Shown: in pieces, positions 39,243-57,778 of the stretch
How the letters are laid out: each line of letters starts with the position of its first letter
Position numbering within the stretch: position 1 is the first letter of the stretch
Source of the DNA: Gemmatimonadota bacterium
Lineage (GTDB): Bacteria; Latescibacterota; UBA2968; UBA8231
NCBI GenBank assembly: GCA_038153405.1
Contig: JAYOYH010000008.1
Location: 59,398-123,397 of the forward strand
Direction: 5' to 3'
Length of the DNA stretch: 64,000 nt
Program-made: the position numbers and the translations under genes
The notes under the pieces: model-generated
What the model saw: the letters and a program-made list of their open reading frames with translations, nothing else
Told to the model about the DNA's origin: nothing
Database searches by the model: none

Positions 39243-40574
39243 TTGAAATCGCATACCCGCAGCGGCTGGGGGCTCTATCCGCAAATCGAGACGCGCGTCG
39301 TTCGCGCCCACCAAGCCGTCGATCTGGCCCGTGCCCATCCGAATGCTTCTCTGCTGGCACAGGGCAGTTGCCGCTCCTATGGCGACGCCTGCCTATCCGA
39401 GCGCGTCGTGTCGACCGCGCCCCTGCATCACCTACTCGAATTTGACGCCGAGCGCGGCGCCGTGCGCTGTGAAGCGGGCATCACGCTGGATCGCCTCATC
39501 GCCTTTATCGCGCCGCGCGGCTTTTTTCTGCCGGTGACGCCGGGCACGAAATTTCCCTCCCTCGGCGGCTGCTTAGCCGCCGATGTGCACGGCAAAAACC
39601 ACCACAGCGAAGGATCGATTGCCCACTTTGTCGAAGAAATCGAACTCGTGCTGGCCGACGGCTCATTGGCGCGCTGCTCGCGGTCTGAGCGCGCCGACCT
39701 GTTCTGGGCTACCCTCGGCGGCATGGGCCTGACCGGAGCGATCTATGCGGCAACCCTGCGCCTCAAGAAAGTCGCCTCTTCTTATATGCGCACGCGCACT
39801 ATCAAAACGCGCAACTTCGAGGAACTCTGCCGGGTTTTTGAGCAAACGCAAAACCAGTATACCTATTCGGTAGCCTGGGTGGACAGCCTAGCCAGCGGCG
39901 CCCGCCTCGGACGCAGTTCGCTCATTCTCGGCGAACACGCCAGCGCCGACGAAGCTCCGCCCACAGCCCCCTTCAAGGTACACGGCAACGGCGGGCCTAG
40001 CGTGCCGCTGTTCTTTCCCAGCGGCGCGCTCAACGGGCTGACGATGCGCGCCTTTAACGCACTGGTCTACCATCGCCAACTGCGCCGCCAATGCGATGCC
40101 ATCGTCCACTACGACCCCTATTTCTATCCGCTGGACTTCGTGCGCCAGTGGAACCGCATCTACGGTCGCCGCGGATTTCTGCAGTACCAGTTCGCCGTGC
40201 CCTTTAACGGCGGACGCGCACTGATGTCGGATATTCTGACCCGCATTGCCCAGCGCGGCGTCGCCTCGTTTCTCACCGTGCTCAAGACGCTGGGCGCTGA
40301 GAGCGGAGGCCTACTCTCCTTCCCCATGCCCGGCTACACCCTAGCACTCGACATTCCGCTGCACGACCGGAGTATTATCGCCTTCTTAAATGAGTTGACC
40401 CAACTGGTCGTCGGCGCCGGCGGGCGCATTTATCTGGCCAAAGATGCCATATTGCAGCGCGCAGACTTTGAGGCCATGTATCCGCATCTAAACGAATTCA
40501 AACGCATAAAGCGCGCCTGCGATCCGCACGGCCGCTTCCGCTCACTGCAATCCGATCGATTGGGAATAACGTGA
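39243..40574 (+). CDS. FAD-binding oxidoreductase, decaprenylphosphoryl-beta-D-ribose oxidase (DprE1-like)
   Basis: GWG, RSYGD, PVTPGT, DVHGKNHH, YFYPLD..WNRIYG.RGFLQYQ, SFLTVLK, LSFPMPG, YLAKD. Confidence 0.88.
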   Translation: MKSHTRSGWGLYPQIETRVVRAHQAVDLARAHPNASLLAQGSCRSYGDACLSERVVSTAPLHHLLEFDAERGAVRCEAGITLDRLIAFIAPRGFFLPVTPGTKFPSLGGCLAADVHGKNHHSEGSIAHFVEEIELVLADGSLARCSRSERADLFWATLGGMGLTGAIYAATLRLKKVASSYMRTRTIKTRNFEELCRVFEQTQNQYTYSVAWVDSLASGARLGRSSLILGEHASADEAPPTAPFKVHGNGGPSVPLFFPSGALNGLTMRAFNALVYHRQLRRQCDAIVHYDPYFYPLDFVRQWNRIYGRRGFLQYQFAVPFNGGRALMSDILTRIAQRGVASFLTVLKTLGAESGGLLSFPMPGYTLALDIPLHDRSIIAFLNELTQLVVGAGGRIYLAKDAILQRADFEAMYPHLNEFKRIKRACDPHGRFRSLQSDRLGIT

Positions 40575-41311
40575 AAAAACGCGCACTCATTCTCGGCGCC
40601 AAATCGGCTATCGCCCGCGCCATCGCCGTGCGTCTGGCCGAAGAGGGCTACGATTTCGCCCTGGCCGCGCGCCAGGTAGAAGCCCTGCAGCCCTTTGCCG
40701 CCGATTTGGCACTCCGATGCGCGTGCCAAGTAGACCTGCTGGAATTCGACGCCTTTGATTTCACCGCACTCGAAGACCTACCACGGCGCGTCGAGCGCGC
40801 ATCCGGCCCCTTTGAACTGGTCGTGCTGGTCTTTGGCTATCTTGGGCAGCAAGCGGAAACGGCCCGCAGCACGGAGGAAATGCTCAAGGTGCTCAACGCC
40901 AACTTTACCAGCGCCGCCGTGGCATTGGGCCACCTGGCCAACTACCTAGAGCAGCGCGGGCACGGCGGTCTAATCGGCATCGGTTCGGTGGCCGGTGATC
41001 GCGGGCGCCAGAGCAATTTTTTTTACGGTGCCGCCAAGGGCGGCCTTGCCCTATTTCTGCAGGGCCTGCGCAATCGCCTCGCGCCCAAAGGCATCCACGT
41101 CCTGACCGTCAAACCCGGCTTTGTCGACACGCCAATGACCGAGGATTTGGACGGCCTCTTTCTGGTGGCCAAACCAGAATCCGTAGCCAACGACATTGTG
41201 CGCGCCTATCAGCGGCGCAGAGACGTGCTCTACACGCCGTTCTTTTGGCGCTGGATTATGTGGATCATCCGCACCATTCCCGAGCGCATCTTCAAGAAGC
41301 TAACGCTCTGA
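40571..41311 (+). CDS. SDR oxidoreductase (DprE2-like)
   Basis: LILGAKSAIA, SVAGDRGRQSNFFYGAAKGG, VKPGFVDTPMT; overlaps the DprE1-like stop. Confidence 0.88.
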   Translation: MKKRALILGAKSAIARAIAVRLAEEGYDFALAARQVEALQPFAADLALRCACQVDLLEFDAFDFTALEDLPRRVERASGPFELVVLVFGYLGQQAETARSTEEMLKVLNANFTSAAVALGHLANYLEQRGHGGLIGIGSVAGDRGRQSNFFYGAAKGGLALFLQGLRNRLAPKGIHVLTVKPGFVDTPMTEDLDGLFLVAKPESVANDIVRAYQRRRDVLYTPFFWRWIMWIIRTIPERIFKKLTL

Positions 41312-45622: not shown

Positions 45623-45646
45623 TGGATTGCGCCAGACGCAAACGAG

Positions 45647-45673
45647 AGAGGGGCGGGATATTCCCGCCCCTCT
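45647..45673. terminator. Intrinsic terminator after fliC (possibly bidirectional)
   Basis: AGAGGGGCGGGA-TAT-TCCCGCCCCTCT followed by TCTATTTTTT. Confidence 0.8.
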
Positions 45674-45674
45674 T

Positions 45675-46100
45675 CTATTTTTTCACCCACTTCTTTCCGC
45701 TGGCCGCGCCGGGATCGGGTGGCCCCTCTTCCCCCTGCAGGACAAAGCCGATAAAGCGCTTTTCCCCCAGCGTCTTCAAATACTGCAGCAGCGAGACCTC
45801 GGCCTCTTTCCGGTTAAGCTGGTAGGTGTCGCTGAGCTTCTCAATCATCTCGCCTACCGAGGTGCGACCATTGCACATCTGCCAAACTTCGGTGCCGACT
45901 TCGTCGAGCGTTATCTTGCGTTTCTTGGGAATATAAAACAGCTTCGAGAGCAGGCGCACCTTCCACGTCTCCTGGCGCACAATGCTGATTTGCACCTCGC
46001 CATCGTCGGTCTTTTCCCACTCAAGCGACTCATTGCGCGTCGGTCGCGACGCCAGCATCGCTCCCCTGTTTAGCTTCGGCTTCTTCGATAAAATGCCCAT
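45675..46100 (-). CDS. PqqD-family / RRE-like protein
   Basis: 'ITLDEVGTEVWQMCNGRTSVGEMIEKLSDTYQL...AEVSLLQYLKTLGEKRFI' winged-helix PqqD pattern. Confidence 0.8.
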   Translation of the reverse strand: MGILSKKPKLNRGAMLASRPTRNESLEWEKTDDGEVQISIVRQETWKVRLLSKLFYIPKKRKITLDEVGTEVWQMCNGRTSVGEMIEKLSDTYQLNRKEAEVSLLQYLKTLGEKRFIGFVLQGEEGPPDPGAASGKKWVKK

Positions 46101-47025
46101 GTACCACGGTATCCACTAGGTCAGAGGCGCCGTCGCGTTTGCGGTAGAGATGTTCGACGATGCCTATTTTGTCTAGGTCTTGGCGATGCCACACCCGCGC
46201 ATCGAGAAAGAGGCGCGGGCGCGGGTTGACAAAGGGAAGCGGGCGCAACAGCTGCCGCCAGCGGCTGCGCGGACGCCCAACCAGGCGCAGGCCGCTGTGC
46301 TCCTCGACCAGTTCGGCCGTTATTTCGGTTTGAAAATCGCGCAGCTGCTTTTTAAAGAATGCCGGGTACCAGTTTTCCAGCGCACTCCCCTTGAGCAGAA
46401 GGCGCGCCATACTCAGGCGATGCACGCGGCACTCTTTGCGCCCGCTTTCGAAGCGCAGCTGGATATGTCCGGACTTGAGCTCGTGTCCGGCCAGAGCGTA
46501 TTCGGACGACATAAAAAAACGCAGGCCATATACGCACCACAGGTATTGTTCGGCGTCGGCCTGATCGCGCAGCGAACGAAATACGCGGTCCACCACGTCG
46601 CTCATATCTTCGCTGCGATGGGCCAACACGCGCAACAAAACGACGCGCTGAGTCGAGATAAAACGCAGGGCCAAATTGTATGCGCGAAAGTCGGCATCCC
46701 ACGTGAAAACCTCGTAGTCAAACCCGTCTAACCACTGTTTTTCCCGCAGGAAACGGGCACGGCGTTGCACCTCAAAATCAGCGCCGGCCTTGTCTGCCTT
46801 TTTTTTAAGCCCCTCTAGGTAGCGATCGACCAGTTCGCTCAGCGGCACGCTCACCTCGCGTCCCTTGAGCTTGCGCCATTCGACTTCGGCGCGGACAATC
46901 TCGGCATCGTCGAGGCGCGCATAGCCCTTTTCCGCATTGCCATCGACGCGACCCAAGTTCCAGTCGGCCGGCACGCTCAGGCGCAGTCCTTGCCAGCCGA
47001 ATTCTTCCCAACCCTCTTCGACCAT
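46030..47025 (-). CDS. Hypothetical soluble protein, two similar halves (possibly PsbP/Mog1-like)
   Basis: Halves begin FGWQGLRLSVPADWNL and WCVYGLRFFMSSEYAL; abuts the upstream gene and overlaps the downstream gene. Confidence 0.7.
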   Translation of the reverse strand: MVEEGWEEFGWQGLRLSVPADWNLGRVDGNAEKGYARLDDAEIVRAEVEWRKLKGREVSVPLSELVDRYLEGLKKKADKAGADFEVQRRARFLREKQWLDGFDYEVFTWDADFRAYNLALRFISTQRVVLLRVLAHRSEDMSDVVDRVFRSLRDQADAEQYLWCVYGLRFFMSSEYALAGHELKSGHIQLRFESGRKECRVHRLSMARLLLKGSALENWYPAFFKKQLRDFQTEITAELVEEHSGLRLVGRPRSRWRQLLRPLPFVNPRPRLFLDARVWHRQDLDKIGIVEHLYRKRDGASDLVDTVVHGHFIEEAEAKQGSDAGVATDAQ

Positions 47026-49440
47026 TTAAAATAGCAGCACGGAAACCGACTTCTGAATGAGCGCTATACCGACGGATGCCATGCCCATAAGGGCCATGCC
47101 GCAGGCAAAGCCCACCGCTAAAATCGGCGCGTACTGGCGCCACTGCTGGCGCCCGTACTTGTTCCAGAAATAGTAGCGGGCCAGCAGAGCACCAATCACC
47201 TCGGTGACGATAAAGTGCGGCAAGACCGTAAGCGAGCGCACAAAGCCAAAGATGAGCAGCACGGGCAGGCCGAGCACGGAGAGCAGAGCAAAACTGACAA
47301 TGCCAAACCCCGCACCAATAGCTATGACATCGGGCTTGAGCGCACGGAACAGCCATGGCTCATCCGTCGAGCGCTGGATCCAGGACGAGGTGAACAGCGG
47401 GTCAGTATCGACTTCAAAATAGTAGTGCCAACCGCTTGGAACGGCCGCATCGGCGCGCACCTTCAGCATCGGTCGCGGATCGCGCACTACGGTGTCCATT
47501 ACCGGCCCTAGCGGACCGAGCATCGGCAACCCCCCGGCTATTTCCTCGCTGGGATCGCTGGCGTCGCGCAGAAAGCGGTCGGCGGCGATATCCGGTTCAC
47601 CCGTTTCAAAGTGCGTATAGAAAACCTGTGTTTCCGACCACGATCCCACCTTGCCGAACTTGCCACCGCTTTCTAACCACTCATCGTCGACCAAGCGCGC
47701 ACGCCAGTACCACCACTCGTCTTCTATCAGATTGGCAGGTGTCCAATCGGCTTGCTGTGCCGTCATGTTGAGCTCGCTGCGCATGGTCCCCGTTATAAAG
47801 AGACACTGCTGGTAGGCGCGCAGACGCCAGATCAACTGGGCGTAGGGATACGAAGCAGAGGGAATCGGCGCCAGTTTCCATATATAGGAGCCGTAGAGAA
47901 AGCTGGTGAATAAAATTACGGGAACCATGAAAATCTCGGCGCGCATAATGCTGGTGAACTTGGTGCCCGTTAGCTCGATCTCGCGAAACTTCTGCGTCTG
48001 CGCACCATAGTTGCCTATCGGAAAGGGAATAAACCAGATATCGACGCCGCGATAACCCGAGAGAATAATCGTCGCCTCGCGCACAAAGGGAATTTCCACC
48101 GTCTGGCCCACCAAGCCCACCAAGCGCGCGTTGACAAACGACTGAAAGGGCGTGAATACAAAGCCGAAGAAGAGGAAAAACCAAATGAATTGACTAAAGC
48201 CAGGAAGCAGCCAGGCGGCGATGCCGATCAGCGCCGTCGTCGCCAACGAGTAGAGTCCCAAGGCTATCCAAATGGAAAAATCGCCGCGCCCCTCGGGCAC
48301 GGCAAAGCTGCGGCGATCACCGCTATCGACATCCGAGGCCCGCGAACGGCGCACGCCCTGCACTACCTGATAAATGCCAATCAGCGCTATGGCAATCGTG
48401 GTGCCAATGCCAAAGCTCATCCAGAAGTCGACGTTATTGACAAAGAAGGTATCGATCGTACCCATGCCCTGTCGCCACAGCGTCAGGTAGGGTTCATCGC
48501 GCCAAGGCGGCGTGTAGATATAGAGAATTGGATTGGCTATCGCCGCTACGCACACGCCTATAAACGTGCCAATAACGCCCCAAAATGGAACGACGAGCCC
48601 GGCAAAAATCGGCCCGAGGTGCGCGGTAAAGCCCAGCGGCGTAGCGGGAATGAAATTGCCCGTCACCTGGGTGAAATCGACAAAGGGAATGGGAATGAGC
48701 TGAATCGGCTCGGTCAGCAGCGCCCCCGTAATGGCCGGCAGCGCTACATAGATCGTGCCAAACACCAGACCGATCATCGCCCCGGCAGAAAACACGCGCC
48801 AGCGCCAGGTCTCGGTCCCCTCCGTGGTTTCGGCCAGGGCCGTAGCGCCCTGCGCATTTACCGGCGCAAAGGGAAAGGGCAGGCGCTCGTAGTCGGAGTT
48901 GAGGCGAAACAGCGCATAGGACATCGTAAACCACGACACGCGCGATATGAGCATGCCGGCCACCAACAAGACAATGGGCATCAGCCAGTCGCGGTGCAGA
49001 AAGGTGCGCTCGATAATGGCCTCGGAGTCGGGCGATGGCGCCACCCAGGTCGGTATCAGATTGGTGATGCCGAACTGCTTGGCGGCCGGCGACTGCACCA
49101 AGTACTGATTGTAGAGCAGTCCATCAAATGCGCCTTCTGACCCAACAAGCGAAGAGGCAACATAAAAGAGGAGGTACACCTCTTGGCGCTTGAGCGTAGA
49201 AAAAGAGCGCTTGGTAATCTCGGCGAAGAGGATGATCGTCACCCACTCTGCAGCCGCCCCCATCGAGCCCCCAATCATCAGGCTCAAATACATATTGCCC
49301 GGCACCATGATGAACGCCACGAAGAATACGCCGAGGATGGCTTTTATCGTAAAGCCGTCCTCGAATTCGTCAGGGACCTGCATCAGATCCCTATACTCTT
49401 CGATCTCCTGGTTCGGGTTTCTCTTTTTTCTTTCGGCCAC
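47026..49440 (-). CDS. OPT-superfamily-like multi-pass membrane transporter with inserted soluble domain
   Basis: 'EDGFTIKAILG', 'LKRQE', 'YERLPFPFAPV', 'APILAVGFACG'; many TM helices; ~150-aa hydrophilic insert. Confidence 0.7.
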   Translation of the reverse strand: MAERKKRNPNQEIEEYRDLMQVPDEFEDGFTIKAILGVFFVAFIMVPGNMYLSLMIGGSMGAAAEWVTIILFAEITKRSFSTLKRQEVYLLFYVASSLVGSEGAFDGLLYNQYLVQSPAAKQFGITNLIPTWVAPSPDSEAIIERTFLHRDWLMPIVLLVAGMLISRVSWFTMSYALFRLNSDYERLPFPFAPVNAQGATALAETTEGTETWRWRVFSAGAMIGLVFGTIYVALPAITGALLTEPIQLIPIPFVDFTQVTGNFIPATPLGFTAHLGPIFAGLVVPFWGVIGTFIGVCVAAIANPILYIYTPPWRDEPYLTLWRQGMGTIDTFFVNNVDFWMSFGIGTTIAIALIGIYQVVQGVRRSRASDVDSGDRRSFAVPEGRGDFSIWIALGLYSLATTALIGIAAWLLPGFSQFIWFFLFFGFVFTPFQSFVNARLVGLVGQTVEIPFVREATIILSGYRGVDIWFIPFPIGNYGAQTQKFREIELTGTKFTSIMRAEIFMVPVILFTSFLYGSYIWKLAPIPSASYPYAQLIWRLRAYQQCLFITGTMRSELNMTAQQADWTPANLIEDEWWYWRARLVDDEWLESGGKFGKVGSWSETQVFYTHFETGEPDIAADRFLRDASDPSEEIAGGLPMLGPLGPVMDTVVRDPRPMLKVRADAAVPSGWHYYFEVDTDPLFTSSWIQRSTDEPWLFRALKPDVIAIGAGFGIVSFALLSVLGLPVLLIFGFVRSLTVLPHFIVTEVIGALLARYYFWNKYGRQQWRQYAPILAVGFACGMALMGMASVGIALIQKSVSVLLF

Positions 49441-49470
49441 GCGTTATTCCCTTATCCCTAAAAGTATTCC

Positions 49471-52400
49471 CTAAGCGGTTATTTCCTGGCGCACCCCTTC
49501 GAGCATATCGCTACCCTGGCGCCGATACTCCTCTTTGGCCTCGCCGTCGACGGTGCGCCAAATGAGGAATTGCTTGCGTATGACATTCATAAAGCGCTGG
49601 TTGACGCGCCGCCACGAAGCGTCTTCGCCGCTGAGCCGCTGCAGCCTCAGCTCAACCGAGTAGATATTGTGCTCGGCGTCTGGAATCGCGCGCAGTGTGA
49701 CGTGCTGACTAACGCCAAGATCAAAGGGTGCCAGCCAGATATTCATATCAATCGCATACGACGTGCCTGCCGGAATCTCTTCATACGAGAGTCTGGCCCC
49801 GTCGGTGTAAAAGGTGCCGATCGACTCCTCGCTGTACGAATCGAAATAGCCAATGAGAAATACGTTGAGCCCGAGCACCTCGTGTCCGCTGACGGTGAAG
49901 GGGAACTCAAAATTCCACTCGTCGCCTTCGGGCGGCGGCAGCTTCCACTTGCGCGTTACGTCGGGAACGGCCATCTGCGACGCCTTGCGCGCCGGATAGA
50001 TCGTAGAGAGCATCACCACGGCCATCACCATCATACAGGACAGCACGGCAGCTAACGACGAGTAGTTGAGTGTAAAACCAGCCAGCAGATCGAGCTCGAT
50101 CAGCACTTTGGCAATGATCTGACCGCTGAGGTAGCCGGCTACTACACCTAGGACCGAATAGACGCACGATTCGGCGATAAACAGCCAGGAAATATGCCCA
50201 GGCGCCAACCCTACCGACGAATAGATGCCAATCTCGCGAAAGCGCTCGTAGACGCTGCCCATCATCGTATTGAGCACAATCAGCGAGGCAATTAAGATGG
50301 GGATAAACAGGTTGCTCATACCCGAAAAAGACGTTAGGCCCAGCGACGAGTAGATCGAAACTTTGATGTATTCGTCGCCGGTTTCTTTTATGCCGGCAAA
50401 GAGCGTCACGGCAAGGCGCGAGAGAAAGTTCTCCACCTCAGCGCGCTCGTCGATGCCCTCGTTAAAGCGCACGGCGACCGACTGCAGCGGGTTGCCGCTG
50501 CCGATATTGCGCAGTGTCTCATAGGGAACGATCAGCGTATTGGCAGGCTCCAAGTGAACAAATGGCTTTATAACGACTTTCGTATCTTCCAAGCCCTGTT
50601 TTTCGCGCTGCTCTTCCTCGGCCATTTCCTGCACCGCCTGCCCGCCCGTCACGGCAAAGTCGGCCGGCGTCAGAATTTCGTCATCGAGGTCCTTGAGGTC
50701 TTTAATGCGGCGCGAATCGAGCACACCGATCACCGTAAAGTAGTCGCCAAATACGCGAACCTGCGCCGTGCCTACTTCTTCGAGCGGAATATTCAAATTG
50801 CCGGAGGCGATCATATCGCTGGGCAGGATACACACTTTTTTCTCGCCCGGCTCAAACCAGCGCCCGGCGATAAGCGCCCGGTCGAGGGCCATAATATCGC
50901 GCTCTTGGGGGGTCAGGCCCAGCACGCCGAGCGCATTGTGCGCGTAATCGCCGTGCTTCATCTTGATGTGTGCTTTAGACTTGTTGCTGTACCAGCTGCG
51001 CGGCGCGACGGTGCCAACCTCGGCGAAATTGCTCAACGCGTAGTCGAGGACCGAATCCTCCATCGGATTCCATGCCTTACTGCGAATTAAAATGCCTTCG
51101 TAGAGCCCTTCGTTGTCGCGTTGAATCTGGTTAAAGCGCATCCCCGTGCGAATCGAGGTAAACGACAGCACCGTAAAGGTGAGCAACAGTAGAGTTAGGA
51201 AGGTGAGTATCGTTCGCGTCTTGCGCCGCTTCATATTGGATATGCCGAGCTGAAAGGCGGTCAACGAAGCGCTGGAGCGACTGACGTCCGTATCGTGGAT
51301 CACCGCCACTTCGGTGCGCAACTTTTTCATTTGCTCGTTAAAGCGCCCCGATATAATCGATATGACCAATACGGCCAGCGCAATAATTATGAAGGCCAGT
51401 AGTATGACAAATGGGTTGGATAATTGGAAGGCCGGGTGGACCAACCACAGCACGGTCCAGATGGTCATAAATACGCCAATAAAACCCAGTATCTGATTTT
51501 TGATCGTCGACGCCGTTATGATCAACCGCTCGGTGAAAAATGCGCAGGGAATAACCAACGCCATAAAGAAGATGATGCCCTGCACGACGTCGTTCTGGGT
51601 CGACTTCACGTCGGGATAGGCGCGCGATTCAAGGCCAAATGCAGCGCGCGTGTGGCGCACAAAATCACCCCAGCGCATCTCGCTCTGCGCCTTGTCGGCC
51701 GCGTCTAACTCGACGCGTGCACGCTCATGCAAATCGTTGAGGCGCTGGTTTTCAATGGCAAAGCTTTTCAACTCGCGCATGCGCGACTCGTCGAGCATCC
51801 ACATATCCTTGGCCGCTTGGTAAGTCGTGCGCGCAAAGGACACGCCGGAGCGAATATCGAAGCCTTCGCCTTCGGCCTTGCTCTTGTCGGTCACGCTAGT
51901 CGCATTGAGCAGCAGCGAGCGAAAACCCAATAACCCTGCACCAAAGCCCATCTTGATGCGCGAACCCGGACGGGCGAAGAGCACGCCGACCGGCTCGTTG
52001 GCCGCCGAGGGCCCCTCCCCCGTTGTAAAACCGTACTCGACGGGCGCGCTATTGGACTCGTCGAACACGCTCACCGCACTCAGCTTGGTCAAATAGCGGG
52101 GGTCGACAATATCGAAAAAGTTATAGGCCACGCAGGGGAAGAGAATCACCATCCACTCTTTGTCGCGCCAGTCCATGGTCACCAGCATGGGATACGCTTC
52201 GTCGCCCTGCACGCCCTTGTCCGGCGCATAGACGATGCTGCCGGTGATCGGGTCCATGTAGTACCCTTCTACCTGAACGCGATTCACGCGCACGCGATTG
52301 ACATAGAAGGAACCCGTCTCGTCTACGAGCTCGAAATACTCTCCGCGCACGCCCTTATACGATTTCTTCTTGCCGTTGCGCACCGCAGCCACAGCGCCGG

Positions 52401-54237
52401 TGCGCGGCAGGTCGGGAACGATGCTGCGGCGCGGAAAGACCATCGTGCGCCCGGTCAGCGAGCGCAAATTATCGCGCAGGCGCATCTTGAAGTCGGGAAA
52501 GAGCTCCGGGTCTTCAAAGGCCATGTGGAACATGCCGGCCAGCATGCGAATCTGCTTCGAGAGGTTTTCGTAGTTGACCTTGTCGGCGCGGTCGAGCGGC
52601 GTGTCGACGAGGAAGCGCGCGTCGTTGACGGTAACAAAGGCCAGAGCCGGGGTCCCGGTAGCCAGCACCAGCTCGCTGTTGACCGAAATTTCGCCCGGCA
52701 CGAACGTCGACCAACTCATGCCGCCTTCCGGACTAATGCCGTTAACCAAAACGTCGCGGCGTTGATAGTCTAGCTCGTGGCTAATCTCTTGGGCATAGCG
52801 CATGAAGTTCTTGCCAAAGGGGGCAAAGTAGCGCTTATAGTAGAACGAGCTATTGCTGTTCCACACACCCAACTCGTCGGTCTGCGTGGAAAGGTCCAAG
52901 CTGATAAAGAGCTTGACCTGCAGCGAGTCCACTTTGGGATCGACCCACTGGCGGAATAGTTGTAGGCGCACATCCTCGTCCGACAGGGCCTCTTTCTTTA
53001 GTTCGTCTCCGCCCGCAAAGCGCTCGTCACCAACGACGAGGGCGTTGCCCTCACTGCGGACTAAGCCGTCGGCTACCGCATCGTCGACGATGCGCCCGAT
53101 CAGCACCTCGTCGCCTTTGACTATGTGGCGCACCAGCGCCTCTTTGCCGGTGAACTCCTCGCGCCCCAACTTGTACTGGATGCCGTCTTTGTCGATCAGG
53201 TTGCGCGCCAACGCCGCATCGACGACGCGACGAACGAGCATGTGGTCGATAAACGGGTCTTCTTTGCGCAGATAGCGCTGGATAAAGTCGTCGACGCCGC
53301 GCAGACCTAGGTGGTGGGCTGACGTAGCCAGGAATACGATGGTGCGCGCCGGCGGATGTTCGCGAAAATAGCGCGCCAGTTCCAACAGGGCCGTGGCGCT
53401 GGCCGCCTGCTCAGCGCCGGGCGCCAGCGATGGCACGACGGACATCGCATCGTAATACCCCTCGAGGACGACCACGTCTTCCTTCAGCAGCGGATCGGAA
53501 CCCGGTATGGTCCCCATTACGTTCCAGGCAGGGCGCCGCTCCCAGTCCATGCGATAGGCCAACTTGGCCGGCAGCGACGGTTCGACCGCCAGTCGCTCGC
53601 GCAGTCGTTGGCCATCGGCCTTGCTCACCCAAAAGCGAGGCACGTCGAGCGGCATGGAGAGGAACTTCTTTTCCCCTTCCAGATAGACCGTCGAATCGGG
53701 TTCGATAAAAATCAGGGCGCTGGCACCGAGATAGGCCGCATTGAGCCAGGCGTCGCCGGAGTTGAAGTCCATTAGGACGGCAGCGCCCTCGACTTCAAAG
53801 CCGTCCATTGCCGAGTACTCCCCTCTACCCGCATCGATGAGCGGCGCTTCTATGCCGCCTTCGGGCAATGTAGAGGTCTTTACCAGATTGGGCCAGATGC
53901 CGTGCAGCCGCACGGCATCGCCCGTCGACGGCAGTGAAAGCTCACCGCCCTTGTCGATCGGTATGGATACGTCGTATTCGTGAATGGTAATTTCGTCGAG
54001 ACCGATCTCGCGGAAATTGTCCTGAATAAAGCGCGCAGCCTCGTCGGCGCCCGGGTAGCCCACGACGCGAGACCCGAAGCCTGCCAGATGACCGAGCGTC
54101 TGCTGCACGCGCGCCGTGGGTGCCGCCTGCGCCAGTTCGGCAAAGTCGACCTCGGCTGCGGCCCAGTGGGGCCATGTAACCGCCACGGTGCTCAACAGCA
54201 GAGCAAAGCACCTGGTCAGGAAGTCTATCTTTTTCAA
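49471..54237 (-). CDS. Exported M28/PA-like domain fused to multi-TM region and MacB/FtsX-type ABC permease
   Basis: Signal peptide; 'LAGFGSRVVGYPGADEAARFI', 'NVMGTIPG', 'LLELAR' (M28 fold); 'SNMKRRKTRTILT', 'LIAGRWF', 'VLNTMMGSVYERFREIGIYSSVG', 'YPARKAS' (MacB/FtsX). Confidence 0.85.
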   Translation of the reverse strand: MKKIDFLTRCFALLLSTVAVTWPHWAAAEVDFAELAQAAPTARVQQTLGHLAGFGSRVVGYPGADEAARFIQDNFREIGLDEITIHEYDVSIPIDKGGELSLPSTGDAVRLHGIWPNLVKTSTLPEGGIEAPLIDAGRGEYSAMDGFEVEGAAVLMDFNSGDAWLNAAYLGASALIFIEPDSTVYLEGEKKFLSMPLDVPRFWVSKADGQRLRERLAVEPSLPAKLAYRMDWERRPAWNVMGTIPGSDPLLKEDVVVLEGYYDAMSVVPSLAPGAEQAASATALLELARYFREHPPARTIVFLATSAHHLGLRGVDDFIQRYLRKEDPFIDHMLVRRVVDAALARNLIDKDGIQYKLGREEFTGKEALVRHIVKGDEVLIGRIVDDAVADGLVRSEGNALVVGDERFAGGDELKKEALSDEDVRLQLFRQWVDPKVDSLQVKLFISLDLSTQTDELGVWNSNSSFYYKRYFAPFGKNFMRYAQEISHELDYQRRDVLVNGISPEGGMSWSTFVPGEISVNSELVLATGTPALAFVTVNDARFLVDTPLDRADKVNYENLSKQIRMLAGMFHMAFEDPELFPDFKMRLRDNLRSLTGRTMVFPRRSIVPDLPRTGAVAAVRNGKKKSYKGVRGEYFELVDETGSFYVNRVRVNRVQVEGYYMDPITGSIVYAPDKGVQGDEAYPMLVTMDWRDKEWMVILFPCVAYNFFDIVDPRYLTKLSAVSVFDESNSAPVEYGFTTGEGPSAANEPVGVLFARPGSRIKMGFGAGLLGFRSLLLNATSVTDKSKAEGEGFDIRSGVSFARTTYQAAKDMWMLDESRMRELKSFAIENQRLNDLHERARVELDAADKAQSEMRWGDFVRHTRAAFGLESRAYPDVKSTQNDVVQGIIFFMALVIPCAFFTERLIITASTIKNQILGFIGVFMTIWTVLWLVHPAFQLSNPFVILLAFIIIALAVLVISIISGRFNEQMKKLRTEVAVIHDTDVSRSSASLTAFQLGISNMKRRKTRTILTFLTLLLLTFTVLSFTSIRTGMRFNQIQRDNEGLYEGILIRSKAWNPMEDSVLDYALSNFAEVGTVAPRSWYSNKSKAHIKMKHGDYAHNALGVLGLTPQERDIMALDRALIAGRWFEPGEKKVCILPSDMIASGNLNIPLEEVGTAQVRVFGDYFTVIGVLDSRRIKDLKDLDDEILTPADFAVTGGQAVQEMAEEEQREKQGLEDTKVVIKPFVHLEPANTLIVPYETLRNIGSGNPLQSVAVRFNEGIDERAEVENFLSRLAVTLFAGIKETGDEYIKVSIYSSLGLTSFSGMSNLFIPILIASLIVLNTMMGSVYERFREIGIYSSVGLAPGHISWLFIAESCVYSVLGVVAGYLSGQIIAKVLIELDLLAGFTLNYSSLAAVLSCMMVMAVVMLSTIYPARKASQMAVPDVTRKWKLPPPEGDEWNFEFPFTVSGHEVLGLNVFLIGYFDSYSEESIGTFYTDGARLSYEEIPAGTSYAIDMNIWLAPFDLGVSQHVTLRAIPDAEHNIYSVELRLQRLSGEDASWRRVNQRFMNVIRKQFLIWRTVDGEAKEEYRRQGSDMLEGVRQEITA

Positions 54238-54360: not shown

Positions 54361-54882
54361 TTACCCATCGCGGCGCGCGGCGATCCAAGCGGAGCGCACA
54401 CCGATCCAATGGGCCAATAGGCCGATTAAGATACCGCTTATCAAGGCGCCGAGCAACGCAATCGGCAGGAGGCGAAACACGCCCAACTGACCAATGTAGA
54501 TGTAGGCCAGAACGAGTTGGGCCAGCTGGTGGGCCAGTGCGCCCCAGATTGCCAGACCGACCGGGCTGAATAGGCGCCGCGCCACCGACCACACCGCCGA
54601 CATAACGAGCCAGCTGCACGCGCCGGCGCCTCCGCCTATGAAAAAGGCCGGCCCGGCCAGCGCCCCACTCAATAGGCCACCCAGCAGCAGCTTGAGTACG
54701 CTGACGATTAGGGCAGCCACCGGACCGTAGGCCATAAGCGCCAGCACGACGGGTAAATTACCCAGACCTAGCTTCATCCATGGGAGCGGGCGCGGCGCTA
54801 GCCCCTCGAAGACATAGAGCACGACAGCGGCGGCGGCCAGCAAGCTAATGCGCGCAATGCGCTGCGTGTTCGTAGCCACCAT
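54361..54882 (-). CDS. Gx transporter family / heptaprenyl diphosphate synthase component I-like membrane protein
   Basis: 'FEGLAPRPLPWMKLGLGN', 'FSPVGLAIWGALAHQLAQL'. Confidence 0.85.
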   Translation of the reverse strand: MVATNTQRIARISLLAAAAVVLYVFEGLAPRPLPWMKLGLGNLPVVLALMAYGPVAALIVSVLKLLLGGLLSGALAGPAFFIGGGAGACSWLVMSAVWSVARRLFSPVGLAIWGALAHQLAQLVLAYIYIGQLGVFRLLPIALLGALISGILIGLLAHWIGVRSAWIAARRDG

Positions 54883-55274
54883 CAGCGCACCACTGCGTCG
54901 ATACCGGCGTGTTCGCCCAAGAGCGTGAGGACTACCTTATTCGGCACGCAGACGATGGCGTCACCCCGGCGCAGGGCCCAACCGCGCAGCACGCAGCGCT
55001 GTTGGCGGCAGGGCGATGCGGTTATACGCACTCCCTGAGGCCCCACTTCGACTTGGCTGATGCCCAGCGGCCCGCCCACCGCATGCACCGCGCTTTCCGC
55101 CAGATCGTACACGCGGGCGGCCTCTCCGCTCTGCACGAGGACACGCCGCCCCGGTTCGGCGCGGTAGTCCAGAGCCAATAGTACGGCAATCACCGCGCTA
55201 AGACCAACGATAAGGAACCAGTCGGCTAGGGTGAGAAGCGCTATCCCAGCAGGTGATCTGCGGTCGTTATCCAC
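54882..55274 (-). CDS. NusG domain II-containing membrane-anchored protein
   Basis: 'GPLG', 'SPCRQQRCVLRGW', 'IVCVPNKV', terminal 'DAVVR'. Confidence 0.88.
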   Translation of the reverse strand: MDNDRRSPAGIALLTLADWFLIVGLSAVIAVLLALDYRAEPGRRVLVQSGEAARVYDLAESAVHAVGGPLGISQVEVGPQGVRITASPCRQQRCVLRGWALRRGDAIVCVPNKVVLTLLGEHAGIDAVVR

Positions 55275-55785: not shown

Positions 55786-56112
55786 ATGCCTTGGTTGATC
55801 GCAACCGTAGTCTGCGTCTGTGCAGCACTCATCATCCAGTATTTCTGCTCCAGCCGACTGCTGCATATGAAACAGCAGATCTCCATAAAGAACATGGCGT
55901 TGCGCGACGCGCGCGAGGAAGGCTCGCGGCTGGAGGGGCAAGAGACCGAGCTCAAGAACCAGCAAAAGAGCCTGGCCTACAGCATCCAGCGGCTGCGCAC
56001 AGATATCAAGCGCCTGCGCAATCAGATCCGGGACAAGGGTTTGGAAGTCCCTACGCCAACGTTTCCAGTCGAAGAACTGGAGGGCGGTAGCGAAGAAGAG
56101 GATGAAGCATGA
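55786..56112 (+). CDS. Small single-TM coiled-coil protein
   Basis: GAGGA RBS; N-terminal TM, heptad repeats, acidic tail. Confidence 0.7.
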   Translation: MPWLIATVVCVCAALIIQYFCSSRLLHMKQQISIKNMALRDAREEGSRLEGQETELKNQQKSLAYSIQRLRTDIKRLRNQIRDKGLEVPTPTFPVEELEGGSEEEDEA

Positions 56113-57778
56113 GTGCCGCGCTGATACTGGCTTGAAGAGATCAGCGCGGGTATCGCGGCTCGCCGTCCTCTGTTTCTGCTGCCTATTTCTCCACACAGCC
56201 TGGGAAAAGTCACCGACCTGGGATGAGGTCGGCTATATAGGGCTGGGCGCCTATCTGCTCAAAACCGGCCAATGGGATGTCCCCGCCTCCGGCTCGCATC
56301 CCCCCCTCGCCTTCTACATCAACAGCCTGCCGTCTTTTCTCTATCCGCTCGACTGGGCGCTCTGGCACTATTCCAACAGCGAGCGCGACGTGCGCTTTCT
56401 GCGCATGGCCGACACAGGGCGCGGCAACGCGCTGCTGCTCGACCAGCGCTACGACGGCGAGGTCTTCTTTTTCTTGACGCGCGCAACTTCGCTCTTTTTT
56501 GCCTGCGTCCTATTTGCCGTCTTGCTGTGCTGGAGCAGGGAGATACTGCCCTATCCGCGCAATATACTACCGGCTTTTCTCTGCGCTCTATCCCCCAATA
56601 TCCTAGCCCATGCCCCCCTCATCAACACCGACTTTGCCCTGACGACCACGTTTATCTGCGCGGTCTTTGCCCTGCGCGCCCTGCTGTACGGGCCGTCGAT
56701 GGGCCGGTTTTTAGCCTGTGGCCTGGCCCTCGGCCTGGCCCTGCTAAGTAAGCTATCGGCCCTCGTACTGCTGCCGATCTTTGCCCTTTTAATCGCCCAT
56801 TTCTATCTCTTTGCCAGCGACCAGCAGCGCGAGGCCGTAGACCACTTCCTCTCACCGCTGCCCTTGCGTCAGCTGCCGATTCGCCTAGCGCTGTGCTTTG
56901 GCGCTCAGTGCGCGCTGGCCGCCTTTGTGCTATGGATTGGCTATGGCTTTCAGATTCTGCCGTACTGGCAAATGGTGCAGTCGCAACTCTGGGATTTACA
57001 AACGGGCCACTCGGCCTATCTAATGGGCGAATTCTCCACGCGCGGATGGTGGCACTACTTCCCGATCGCCCTGTTGATCAAAACTCCTATTGTCACGCTG
57101 CTGCTCGTCGCCGCAGGCCTATTTCCCCTGCTGTTTCGCCGCAGCCTGCGCCTCGAAATGGGTTTCCTACTCATCGCACCGCTGATACTGTTGGCCGGCT
57201 TTGTGCTGGGCAACAGCAAAAACATTGGCCTGCGCTATATCCTGCCCATCTACCCCTTTATGTTTTTGGTTTCCGCATACGCCGAGTTTCCACTGCGCTC
57301 CAGAGTGCGCCCGTGGATTGCAGCGGCGCTGTGCGGCTGGTATGCCTTTTCCTCGCTCTCTACGCACCCACACCACCTGGCCTATTTTAACGAAGCCGTC
57401 GGCGGGCCTGCCAACGGTTACCGCTATATGGTCGACTCAAACCTCGACTGGGGACAGGATTTAAAAGGCCTCAAGCGCTATATGGACGAGCGCGGTATCG
57501 ACTCGATAAAGCTGAGCTATTTTGGCACAGTAGACCCGCGCCTCTACGATCTGCGCTACGAGTGGCTGCCCAGTTTTGTCCTGCCCAACCCAGATGCTCA
57601 GCGACAGGTCGTCTTTCCAACCGATGGACTCATTGCCATTAGTGCGACCAACTTAGTGGGCGTATATATGGATCAGTACGGCCACGGCAAGCACCTTTTC
57701 TCTTGGCTTGACCAGCACCAGCCCATCGCACACATCGGCCACTCCATTCTCATCTACGACATACCGCCCCAGTACTAG
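56102..57778 (+). CDS. GT-C fold glycosyltransferase (family 39 / ArnT-PMT-like)
   Basis: 'SPTWDE', HPPL, SPNILAHA, LALLSKLS, GWWHYFP, IGLRYILP, LAYFNE, DSNLDWGQD. Confidence 0.85.
   Translation: MKHECRADTGLKRSARVSRLAVLCFCCLFLHTAWEKSPTWDEVGYIGLGAYLLKTGQWDVPASGSHPPLAFYINSLPSFLYPLDWALWHYSNSERDVRFLRMADTGRGNALLLDQRYDGEVFFFLTRATSLFFACVLFAVLLCWSREILPYPRNILPAFLCALSPNILAHAPLINTDFALTTTFICAVFALRALLYGPSMGRFLACGLALGLALLSKLSALVLLPIFALLIAHFYLFASDQQREAVDHFLSPLPLRQLPIRLALCFGAQCALAAFVLWIGYGFQILPYWQMVQSQLWDLQTGHSAYLMGEFSTRGWWHYFPIALLIKTPIVTLLLVAAGLFPLLFRRSLRLEMGFLLIAPLILLAGFVLGNSKNIGLRYILPIYPFMFLVSAYAEFPLRSRVRPWIAAALCGWYAFSSLSTHPHHLAYFNEAVGGPANGYRYMVDSNLDWGQDLKGLKRYMDERGIDSIKLSYFGTVDPRLYDLRYEWLPSFVLPNPDAQRQVVFPTDGLIAISATNLVGVYMDQYGHGKHLFSWLDQHQPIAHIGHSILIYDIPPQY

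Follow-up and report, generated by a model that had tools for sequence, protein, structure and literature searches.

An apparently undescribed gene set of the type VII ABC kind combines an M28-fold permease with OPT-fold membrane proteins in a Gemmatimonadota bacterium genome

What kind of machine is built from a giant peptidase-fold permease, a membrane protein of solute-carrier fold, a PsbP-like protein and a PqqD-like protein, encoded side by side with no ATPase among them? The four genes lie in a 64,000-nt stretch of a Gemmatimonadota bacterium genome placed in Latescibacterota by GTDB (GCA_038153405.1, JAYOYH010000008.1, positions 59,398–123,397, forward strand; hereafter the window). They belong to a set of seven to eight genes of the type VII (MacB/FtsX-like) ATP-binding cassette (ABC) kind, conserved across several phyla. 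This set is real and conserved, and is apparently an undescribed variant of type VII ABC systems. Its parts very probably work as an ATP-driven assembly. The genes, in the order of the operon, are:

49471..54237, minus strand: the giant, 1588 aa (ORF list, Pfam, alignments)
47026..49440, minus strand: OPT/YSL-fold membrane protein (the OPT-like protein), 804 aa (structure model, Foldseek, VIA)
46030..47025, minus strand: tandem PsbP/Mog1-fold soluble protein, 331 aa, single copy (structure model, alignment)
45675..46100, minus strand: stand-alone PqqD protein of the RiPP recognition element (RRE) fold, 141 aa, single copy (Pfam; RiPP, ribosomally synthesized and post-translationally modified peptide)

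The four open reading frames (ORFs) are joined by gaps of 30 nt and 0 nt and by a 71-nt overlap. Among ORFs of at least 60 aa annotated with Pfam, the operon has none for an ATPase, a radical SAM enzyme or a YcaO protein; a shorter precursor peptide may be encoded.

A gene set wider than the operon

An ATPase gene does appear in the neighbourhoods of relatives, where the preliminary description of this locus, made from the sequence alone, had thought that a linked one might be sought. A metagenome scan confirmed at least 582 relatives, of which the best 80 were kept; our counts are made on the 29 loci of at least 14 kb, which are not independent of one another (51 shorter loci were left out). 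All 29 carry the giant, 26 a DUF6785 gene, 22 a small FtsX gene, 18 the PsbP gene and 17 the RRE gene, and a LolD-type ATPase lies inside the operon in 22. Judged by their neighbours, many of the metagenome loci give the impression of sulfate-reducer DNA. Features seen around the operons L088, L089, L094, L115, L129, L133 and L142 are GT28-like genes and DUF2334 deacetylase genes on the flanks, an unassigned gene of ~210 aa between the OPT and PsbP genes and, on the opposite strand, a cluster with a ~840-aa ABC exporter.

Among 20 diverse loci chosen across the phylum, the full operon (giant, OPT-like, PsbP, RRE, then small FtsX and ATPase) is present in four, L052, L054, L055 and L064, with DUF6785 in view at three of them. 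Two Lentisphaerae loci combine DUF6785/6784, giant, OPT-like and small FtsX genes with two ATPases. As an exact block, the four genes are characteristic of a family only, since 13 of the 20 diverse loci show the PsbP gene with neither a giant nor an OPT-like gene inside the fetched region. All four labels appear at 13 of 27 genome loci in a filtered listing; in the remainder the contig ended, the ORF filter missed a gene or other genes were inserted, or the locus was one of the two from Lentisphaerae. Eight to nine short genes separate the giant from the OPT-like gene in two relatives (L027:3756-9666, L028:1155-9565), and in four genomes the RRE gene adjoins small FtsX instead of the PsbP gene. 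Small assemblies (1.8–3.1 Mb) keep the full operon together with an exported TPR protein, whose gene sits directly upstream of the giant (L054:2502-3254; L055:15608-16318; L052:16404-17261). The four genes are co-conserved in relatives, as the first proposal required, but they are not the whole system and their contiguity is lineage-specific.

In this genome, a small FtsX gene and an ATPase gene stand adjacent on contig C18, their products 59.6% and 76.6% identical to the operon-encoded ones. In the ATPase, the Walker A, signature, Walker B and H-loop motifs are all intact, as read from its sequence. A quick tree places it with the ATPases encoded in operons (SH-aLRT 84, unstarred), and it finds LolD as its best NCBIfam match (E 1.5e-68), yet below the named-family cut-off. 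From gene order and orthology, we infer that this ATPase is cognate to the giant. The earlier statement that the operon lacks an ATPase holds locally, but not for the genome, nor for the many relatives that carry the gene within the operon. A second LolD-type ATPase (contig C2, L152:1760-2533), with no permease beside it and ~55% identity to the operon ATPases, may be the counterpart of the second ATPase in the Lentisphaerae operons. The operon has probably also lost DUF6785 by relocation, because a solo copy on contig C56 groups, in a FastTree tree, with the copy sitting just upstream of the giant in relatives.

Copy numbers are uneven: the genome holds 6 giants, 5 OPT-like genes and 21 DUF6785 genes. 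Four of the five paralogous giants adjoin both membrane partners and the fifth is a natural giant–DUF6785/6784 fusion of 2122 aa (contig C5, L044:9787-16155). After it come genes for three FG-GAP proteins; ASPIC-UnbV domains are clear in two of these and weaker in the third. No ATPase lies beside any of the five paralogous giants. The paralogous locus on C17 (L047:37-14946) adjoins a TonB-dependent receptor and that on C7 (L046) adjoins ExbB/ExbD; around these two and C60 (L045), neighbours also include genes for a type IX secretion (T9SS)-type protein, PorV, TPR and PPIase-like proteins. On C49 (L043:1-13299), the genes that come after DUF6785, giant and OPT encode YbjN/CesT-like and PspA/IM30 proteins and a flavin amine oxidase. 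No giant stands beside 16 of the 21 DUF6785 genes, and solo and giant-linked copies are intermixed in the FastTree tree, which has 7 changes, with starred branches forcing no fewer than 5 of them.

Small FtsX, PsbP and RRE, by contrast with these, are single. A survey of 121 genomes of the phylum (small FtsX threshold E 1e-30, which excludes generic FtsX; RRE threshold E 1e-12) found DUF6785 in 110, small FtsX in 108, PsbP in 106 and RRE in 104, and each of the four in none of the 11 genomes of family f10; in two f10 genomes, the giant query gave generic FtsX matches only. No genome had more than a single match to small FtsX or to RRE. The same is true of PsbP in all genomes but two, where it is split over contigs.

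Folds and conserved residues of the four proteins

The preliminary account of the operon itself (four minus-strand genes, their lengths, their junctions and a terminal hairpin) agrees with the ORF coordinates and a hairpin scan. Its protein assignments are likewise borne out: the exported peptidase-fold/MacB–FtsX fusion of 1588 aa by Pfam, alignments and hydropathy, the OPT-like protein by a whole-fold model match to barley YS1 (HvYS1), the two-repeat soluble PsbP-like protein by a tandem-domain model and the stand-alone PqqD-like protein by Pfam.

The giant runs from a likely signal peptide (by eye) through a PA/M28-fold ectodomain and three extra transmembrane (TM) helices at 882–968 to a MacB/FtsX core, made up of TM1 (~1007–1031), a periplasmic core domain and TM2–4 (~1300–1420; hydropathy). 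A conserved C-terminal tail of ~170 aa follows, for which the ESM Atlas gave nothing usable. Pfam matches cover Peptidase_M28 (239–320), MacB_PCD (1009–1200; 29.9 bits, cut-off 27) and FtsX (1311–1422; 56.2 bits, cut-off 25.5), and the coupling motif ERFREIG is intact. The N-terminal part aligns to M28 aminopeptidases (best E 1.2e-9); a match to nicalin is not significant (E 0.4), and bacterial aminopeptidases score far better.

We surveyed the M28 active site in 56 giants (<88% identity) aligned to solved aminopeptidases, using the numbering of the reference aminopeptidase AAP (E151, catalytic Glu; H97, first His ligand; D117, E152, D179 and H256, other ligands). The position of the catalytic Glu is His308 in the giant and His in 80% of the 56 rows; that of the first His ligand is Tyr261, usually Tyr or Phe, with His in 1 of 56. 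The D117 position is mostly acidic and the E152 position is not Glu, while the D179 position is Asp or His and the last His (H256) is absent, both of the latter being mapped by motif only. An invariant Asp and the bridging acid are retained across the 56 giants, and the C60 paralogue keeps the first His. Because the catalytic Glu and several metal ligands are lost, the domain is probably inactive, a binding domain rather than a peptidase; the processing of peptides, suggested at first, is unlikely.

Neither the 804-aa nor the 331-aa protein has a Pfam or NCBIfam match at cut-off, and their sequence profiles found no solved relative. For the 804-aa protein, PF03169 reaches 25.2 bits against a cut-off of 25.8, and partial stretches of certain homologues from related genomes exceed it. 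Its structure model (predicted local distance difference test score, pLDDT, 84; 80 sequences) matches HvYS1 only (Foldseek E ~5e-8, next match 0.08), with a VIA Z of 19.3 and a root mean square deviation (rmsd) of 5.2 over 549 aligned residues. The sole ESM Atlas output was an automatic 'peptide transporter' name, possibly from the query protein's own cluster. A β insert at ~552–692 is weakly Ig-like, lineage-specific and missing from many homologues; across the family, inserts differ at one site, where there is none, an Ig-like domain or a repeat-rich β domain (L052:8839-11718; L043:4115-6742).

Profile comparison with hhalign relates the OPT-like family weakly to DUF6785 (probability 13%, E 0.002) and more weakly to canonical OPT (2.6%). 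DUF6785 aligns to canonical OPT with a probability of 80% (E 1.3e-5) and, by this measure, is itself OPT-related. All 8 of the canonical bacterial OPTs compared keep the proton-site pair of HvYS1, D490/D494. Short-motif anchoring places the equivalent OPT-like positions at A480/K484, which are variable and do not have Asp among their common residues (80 rows; hhalign left the region unaligned), and the Asp pair seems to be replaced in this family. Two other acids, E455 and E489, are invariant.

The model of the 331-aa protein (pLDDT 91.6, 135 sequences) is composed of two PsbP/Mog1 domains, with matched rows covering 4–156 and 167–316. Its best matches have Z 12.4 (rmsd 3.2, 141 aligned) and Z 9.8 (rmsd 3.3, 122 aligned), the halves being matched by different rows. 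BLAST of the halves detected no repeat; the duplication is visible only in the alignment and the model. A Cys/His cluster (positions 122, 125, 155, 243, 281, 313 and 314), present in ~80–87% of the 135 family rows, is a possible metal site; the copy here has lost six of the seven positions. Distant homologues bear Planctomycetota and Armatimonadota names. The 141-aa protein matches PqqD (PF05402, E 4.7e-12) and falls under every curated RiPP-chaperone cut-off in NCBIfam.

Relation to known systems and possible workings

Type VII ABC systems are defined by a core of four TM helices in which a periplasmic domain separates TM1 from TM2 (PMC5985334, available sections). The giant shares its FtsX-type four-TM core, periplasmic domain and coupling motif with LolCDE, MacAB-TolC, FtsEX-EnvC and YbbAP-TesA, and the gene set resembles LolCDE further in having two different permease halves and a LolD-like ATPase. 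Unlike these systems, the giant adds an M28-fold ectodomain of ~850 aa, three TM helices and a C-terminal tail, the small FtsX half nearly lacks a periplasmic domain, and the partners are OPT-fold, PsbP and RRE proteins, with no MacA or TolC gene in the four-gene operon. All NCBIfam scores of the giant, small FtsX and ATPase lie below the LolCDE, MacB, FtsEX and YbbAP cut-offs.

The 804-aa protein has the core and scaffold fold of OPT/YSL transporters (PF03169; barley YS1, PDB 7WSR/7WST), but at 13–14% identity, just under the Pfam cut-off, with the proton-site pair apparently lost and with periplasmic inserts that vary; its gene also belongs with those of an ABC permease and of another divergent relative of OPT. 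In its PA/M28 ectodomain without the catalytic set, the giant is like the M28-fold pseudo-peptidases nicalin, nicastrin and transferrin receptor; it differs in the fusion to an ABC permease and in the poor score of the nicalin match. The 141-aa protein matches the family of PqqD/RRE peptide chaperones, whereas its gene is single-copy, tied to transporter genes and without a modifying enzyme nearby. Group II energy-coupling factor (ECF) importers are alike in logic only, a shared ATPase module serving many scattered substrate-specific membrane subunits; FtsX and OPT folds are unrelated to EcfT and S components, and the analogy is drawn from copy numbers. Targeted literature searches, with subscription journals and supplements outside their scope, returned no description of the gene set, nor is there one in the available portions of PMC5898192 and PMC4454575; the same scope held no paper on DUF6785/6784. 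These searches gave no matching characterised system, in line with the preliminary statement that no experimental characterisation was known.

We favour a reading in which the four genes, with the C18 ATPase and small FtsX, would form an ATP-driven importer whose motor moves OPT-fold carriers, and we put the chances of this at about even. The FtsX core of the giant would pair with small FtsX and two LolD-type ATPase subunits, in the manner of LolC, LolE and LolD, and its inactive M28 ectodomain would act as a periplasmic receptor that captures cargo. The OPT-like and DUF6785 proteins are proposed as a carrier pair by analogy with YS1, which forms a dimer and works in an elevator-like way (PMC9691689, available sections). 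Within this pair, the OPT-like protein would stay with its own giant, and the many DUF6785 paralogues would confer differing specificities. A shared hub of single-copy parts would consist of small FtsX, the ATPase, the PsbP protein and the RRE, the last two as cytoplasmic adaptors. A drive by ATP rather than protons is suggested because the YS1 Asp490/Asp494 pair seems replaced in the OPT-like family.

The direction would be import of small organic solutes, with peptides among the candidates. Import is favoured because known members of the fold take substrates up (as described in the available parts of PMC9691689 and PMC13642987), because the carriers are multiplied and because two paralogous loci adjoin a TonB-dependent receptor or ExbB/ExbD. 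OPT-family cargo also includes metal chelates, glutathione and folates (same sources and parts), and we doubt that peptides are the main cargo. The peptide-capturing or importing machine first pictured, four genes without an ATPase, survives as a membrane gene set with confirmed folds, but the ATPase, small FtsX and DUF6785 are also core. In its boldest form, which we offer tentatively, the favoured reading describes a new class of ABC importer: a type VII hub would dock on several pseudo-peptidase receptor permeases and mechanically drive elevator-type OPT-fold carriers without proton coupling, with dozens of exchangeable DUF6785 proteins per genome setting the cargo.

Several observations weigh against this importer. 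Type VII systems are described as acting in the periplasm, with no substrate movement across the inner membrane (PMC5985334, available sections). The direct link among the parts is the giant–DUF6785 fusion only, and the absence in f10 concerns one lineage, hence a single event. The residue mapping from HvYS1 rests on a short motif, and E455/E489 could still couple protons. Solo DUF6785 genes adjoin catabolic enzymes in 12 of 16 cases here, against a background of 18% (families picked post hoc), a signal that was not replicated in three other genomes (~4 of 20 regions), where the neighbours are mixed hydrolases and secreted proteins. Solo copies also adjoin secreted FlgD/T9SS-type proteins, and some metagenome operons adjoin glycosyltransferase and deacetylase genes; both would fit work on the envelope as well.

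Such work is the substance of a rival that we regard as unlikely. Here the complex, still driven by ATP, would act on proteins, lipids or glycans of the envelope by extracting, inserting or exporting them, and the inactive M28 domain would be a gatekeeper for clients, like nicalin or nicastrin. Type VII systems are known in such roles (PMC5985334, available sections; PMC12646458), the full operon with its exported TPR protein is retained in the 1.8–3.1-Mb assemblies, and PPIase-like, PorV and T9SS-type proteins occur at the paralogous loci. The partner proteins, however, have a solute-carrier fold, and 21 DUF6785 copies suit many cargos better than a single housekeeping client. The GT28-like and deacetylase genes that flank several metagenome operons were not found in this genome (5 queries, E 1e-4), and the nicalin match that would support a gatekeeper is weak and not significant beside those to bacterial aminopeptidases. 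The carriers might instead be ion-coupled, with the ABC part only gating or sensing cargo and signalling through the PsbP protein and RRE. We think this improbable. The 16 DUF6785 genes without an adjoining giant, the invariant charged residues that persist in both carrier families and the PsbP-family Cys/His cluster, as a possible sensing site, would suit it; against this, solo copies are intermixed with giant-linked ones in the tree, DUF6785 was not found in the hub-less family f10, and among the neighbours that recur in the listed loci we noted neither a kinase nor a regulator.

Two further explanations fare worse. A cluster that matures and exports RiPPs or peptides, in which the M28 peptidase is active and the RRE binds leaders, has the PqqD match and the M28 fold on its side, but is very unlikely: no modifying enzyme is among the annotated genes, the RRE is under all RiPP-chaperone cut-offs, single-copy phylum-wide and linked to transporter genes, and the peptidase domain has His for its catalytic Glu and has lost metal ligands. 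Least credible is a self-contained four-gene machine without an ATPase; none is encoded in the operon here or beside the 5 paralogous giants, yet orthologous ATPase and small FtsX genes lie on C18, the ATPase is in the operon at 22 of 29 long loci and the giant's coupling motif is intact.

If the motor proves to drive carriers, as the favoured reading has it, this would be a new kind of system. A type VII ABC motor would then power import via a secondary-carrier fold, changing the view of this ABC class, and DUF6785/6784 (21 copies here; 110 of 121 phylum genomes) would gain a role. The result would bear on the feeding of Latescibacterota and would give an example of an RRE with a task apart from RiPP synthesis. 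Because the hub is single-copy, one knockout could test the system.

Flanking features and RNA matches

Two further features border the operon:

45646..45674, no strand assigned: 13-bp hairpin, likely terminator, separating the end of the operon from a flagellin gene that runs towards it
54361..55274, minus strand: NusG_II and Hpre_diP_synt_I (Gx) genes, upstream of the giant (Pfam)

The hairpin was called a terminator on the plus strand, and its minus-strand T-run is weak; terminator-like sites total 17, near chance, against 13.5 ± 4.2 in shuffles. The NusG_II/Gx pair lies 123 nt upstream of the giant, is syntenic within this family only and is represented by four of each gene in the 29 long metagenome loci; these genes are probably not core parts. 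The pair may resemble genes of flavin-based electron-transfer loci.

Short, near-identical RNA pieces span all four genes in 4 runs of one study (assembled contigs from runs picked via this stretch), with 45 pieces at ≥99% within 11.2 kb, compared with 31 within 19.9 kb of control sequence, the two thresholds being unequal. We do not take these pieces as evidence of expression, because they are contigs only, the runs were selected with this stretch and a DNA origin is possible. Elsewhere in the window (39243–41311 and 56102–57778), there are an FAD-oxidase and short-chain reductase pair (by eye) and a PMT_2 glycosyltransferase, possibly of lipid-linked sugar metabolism.

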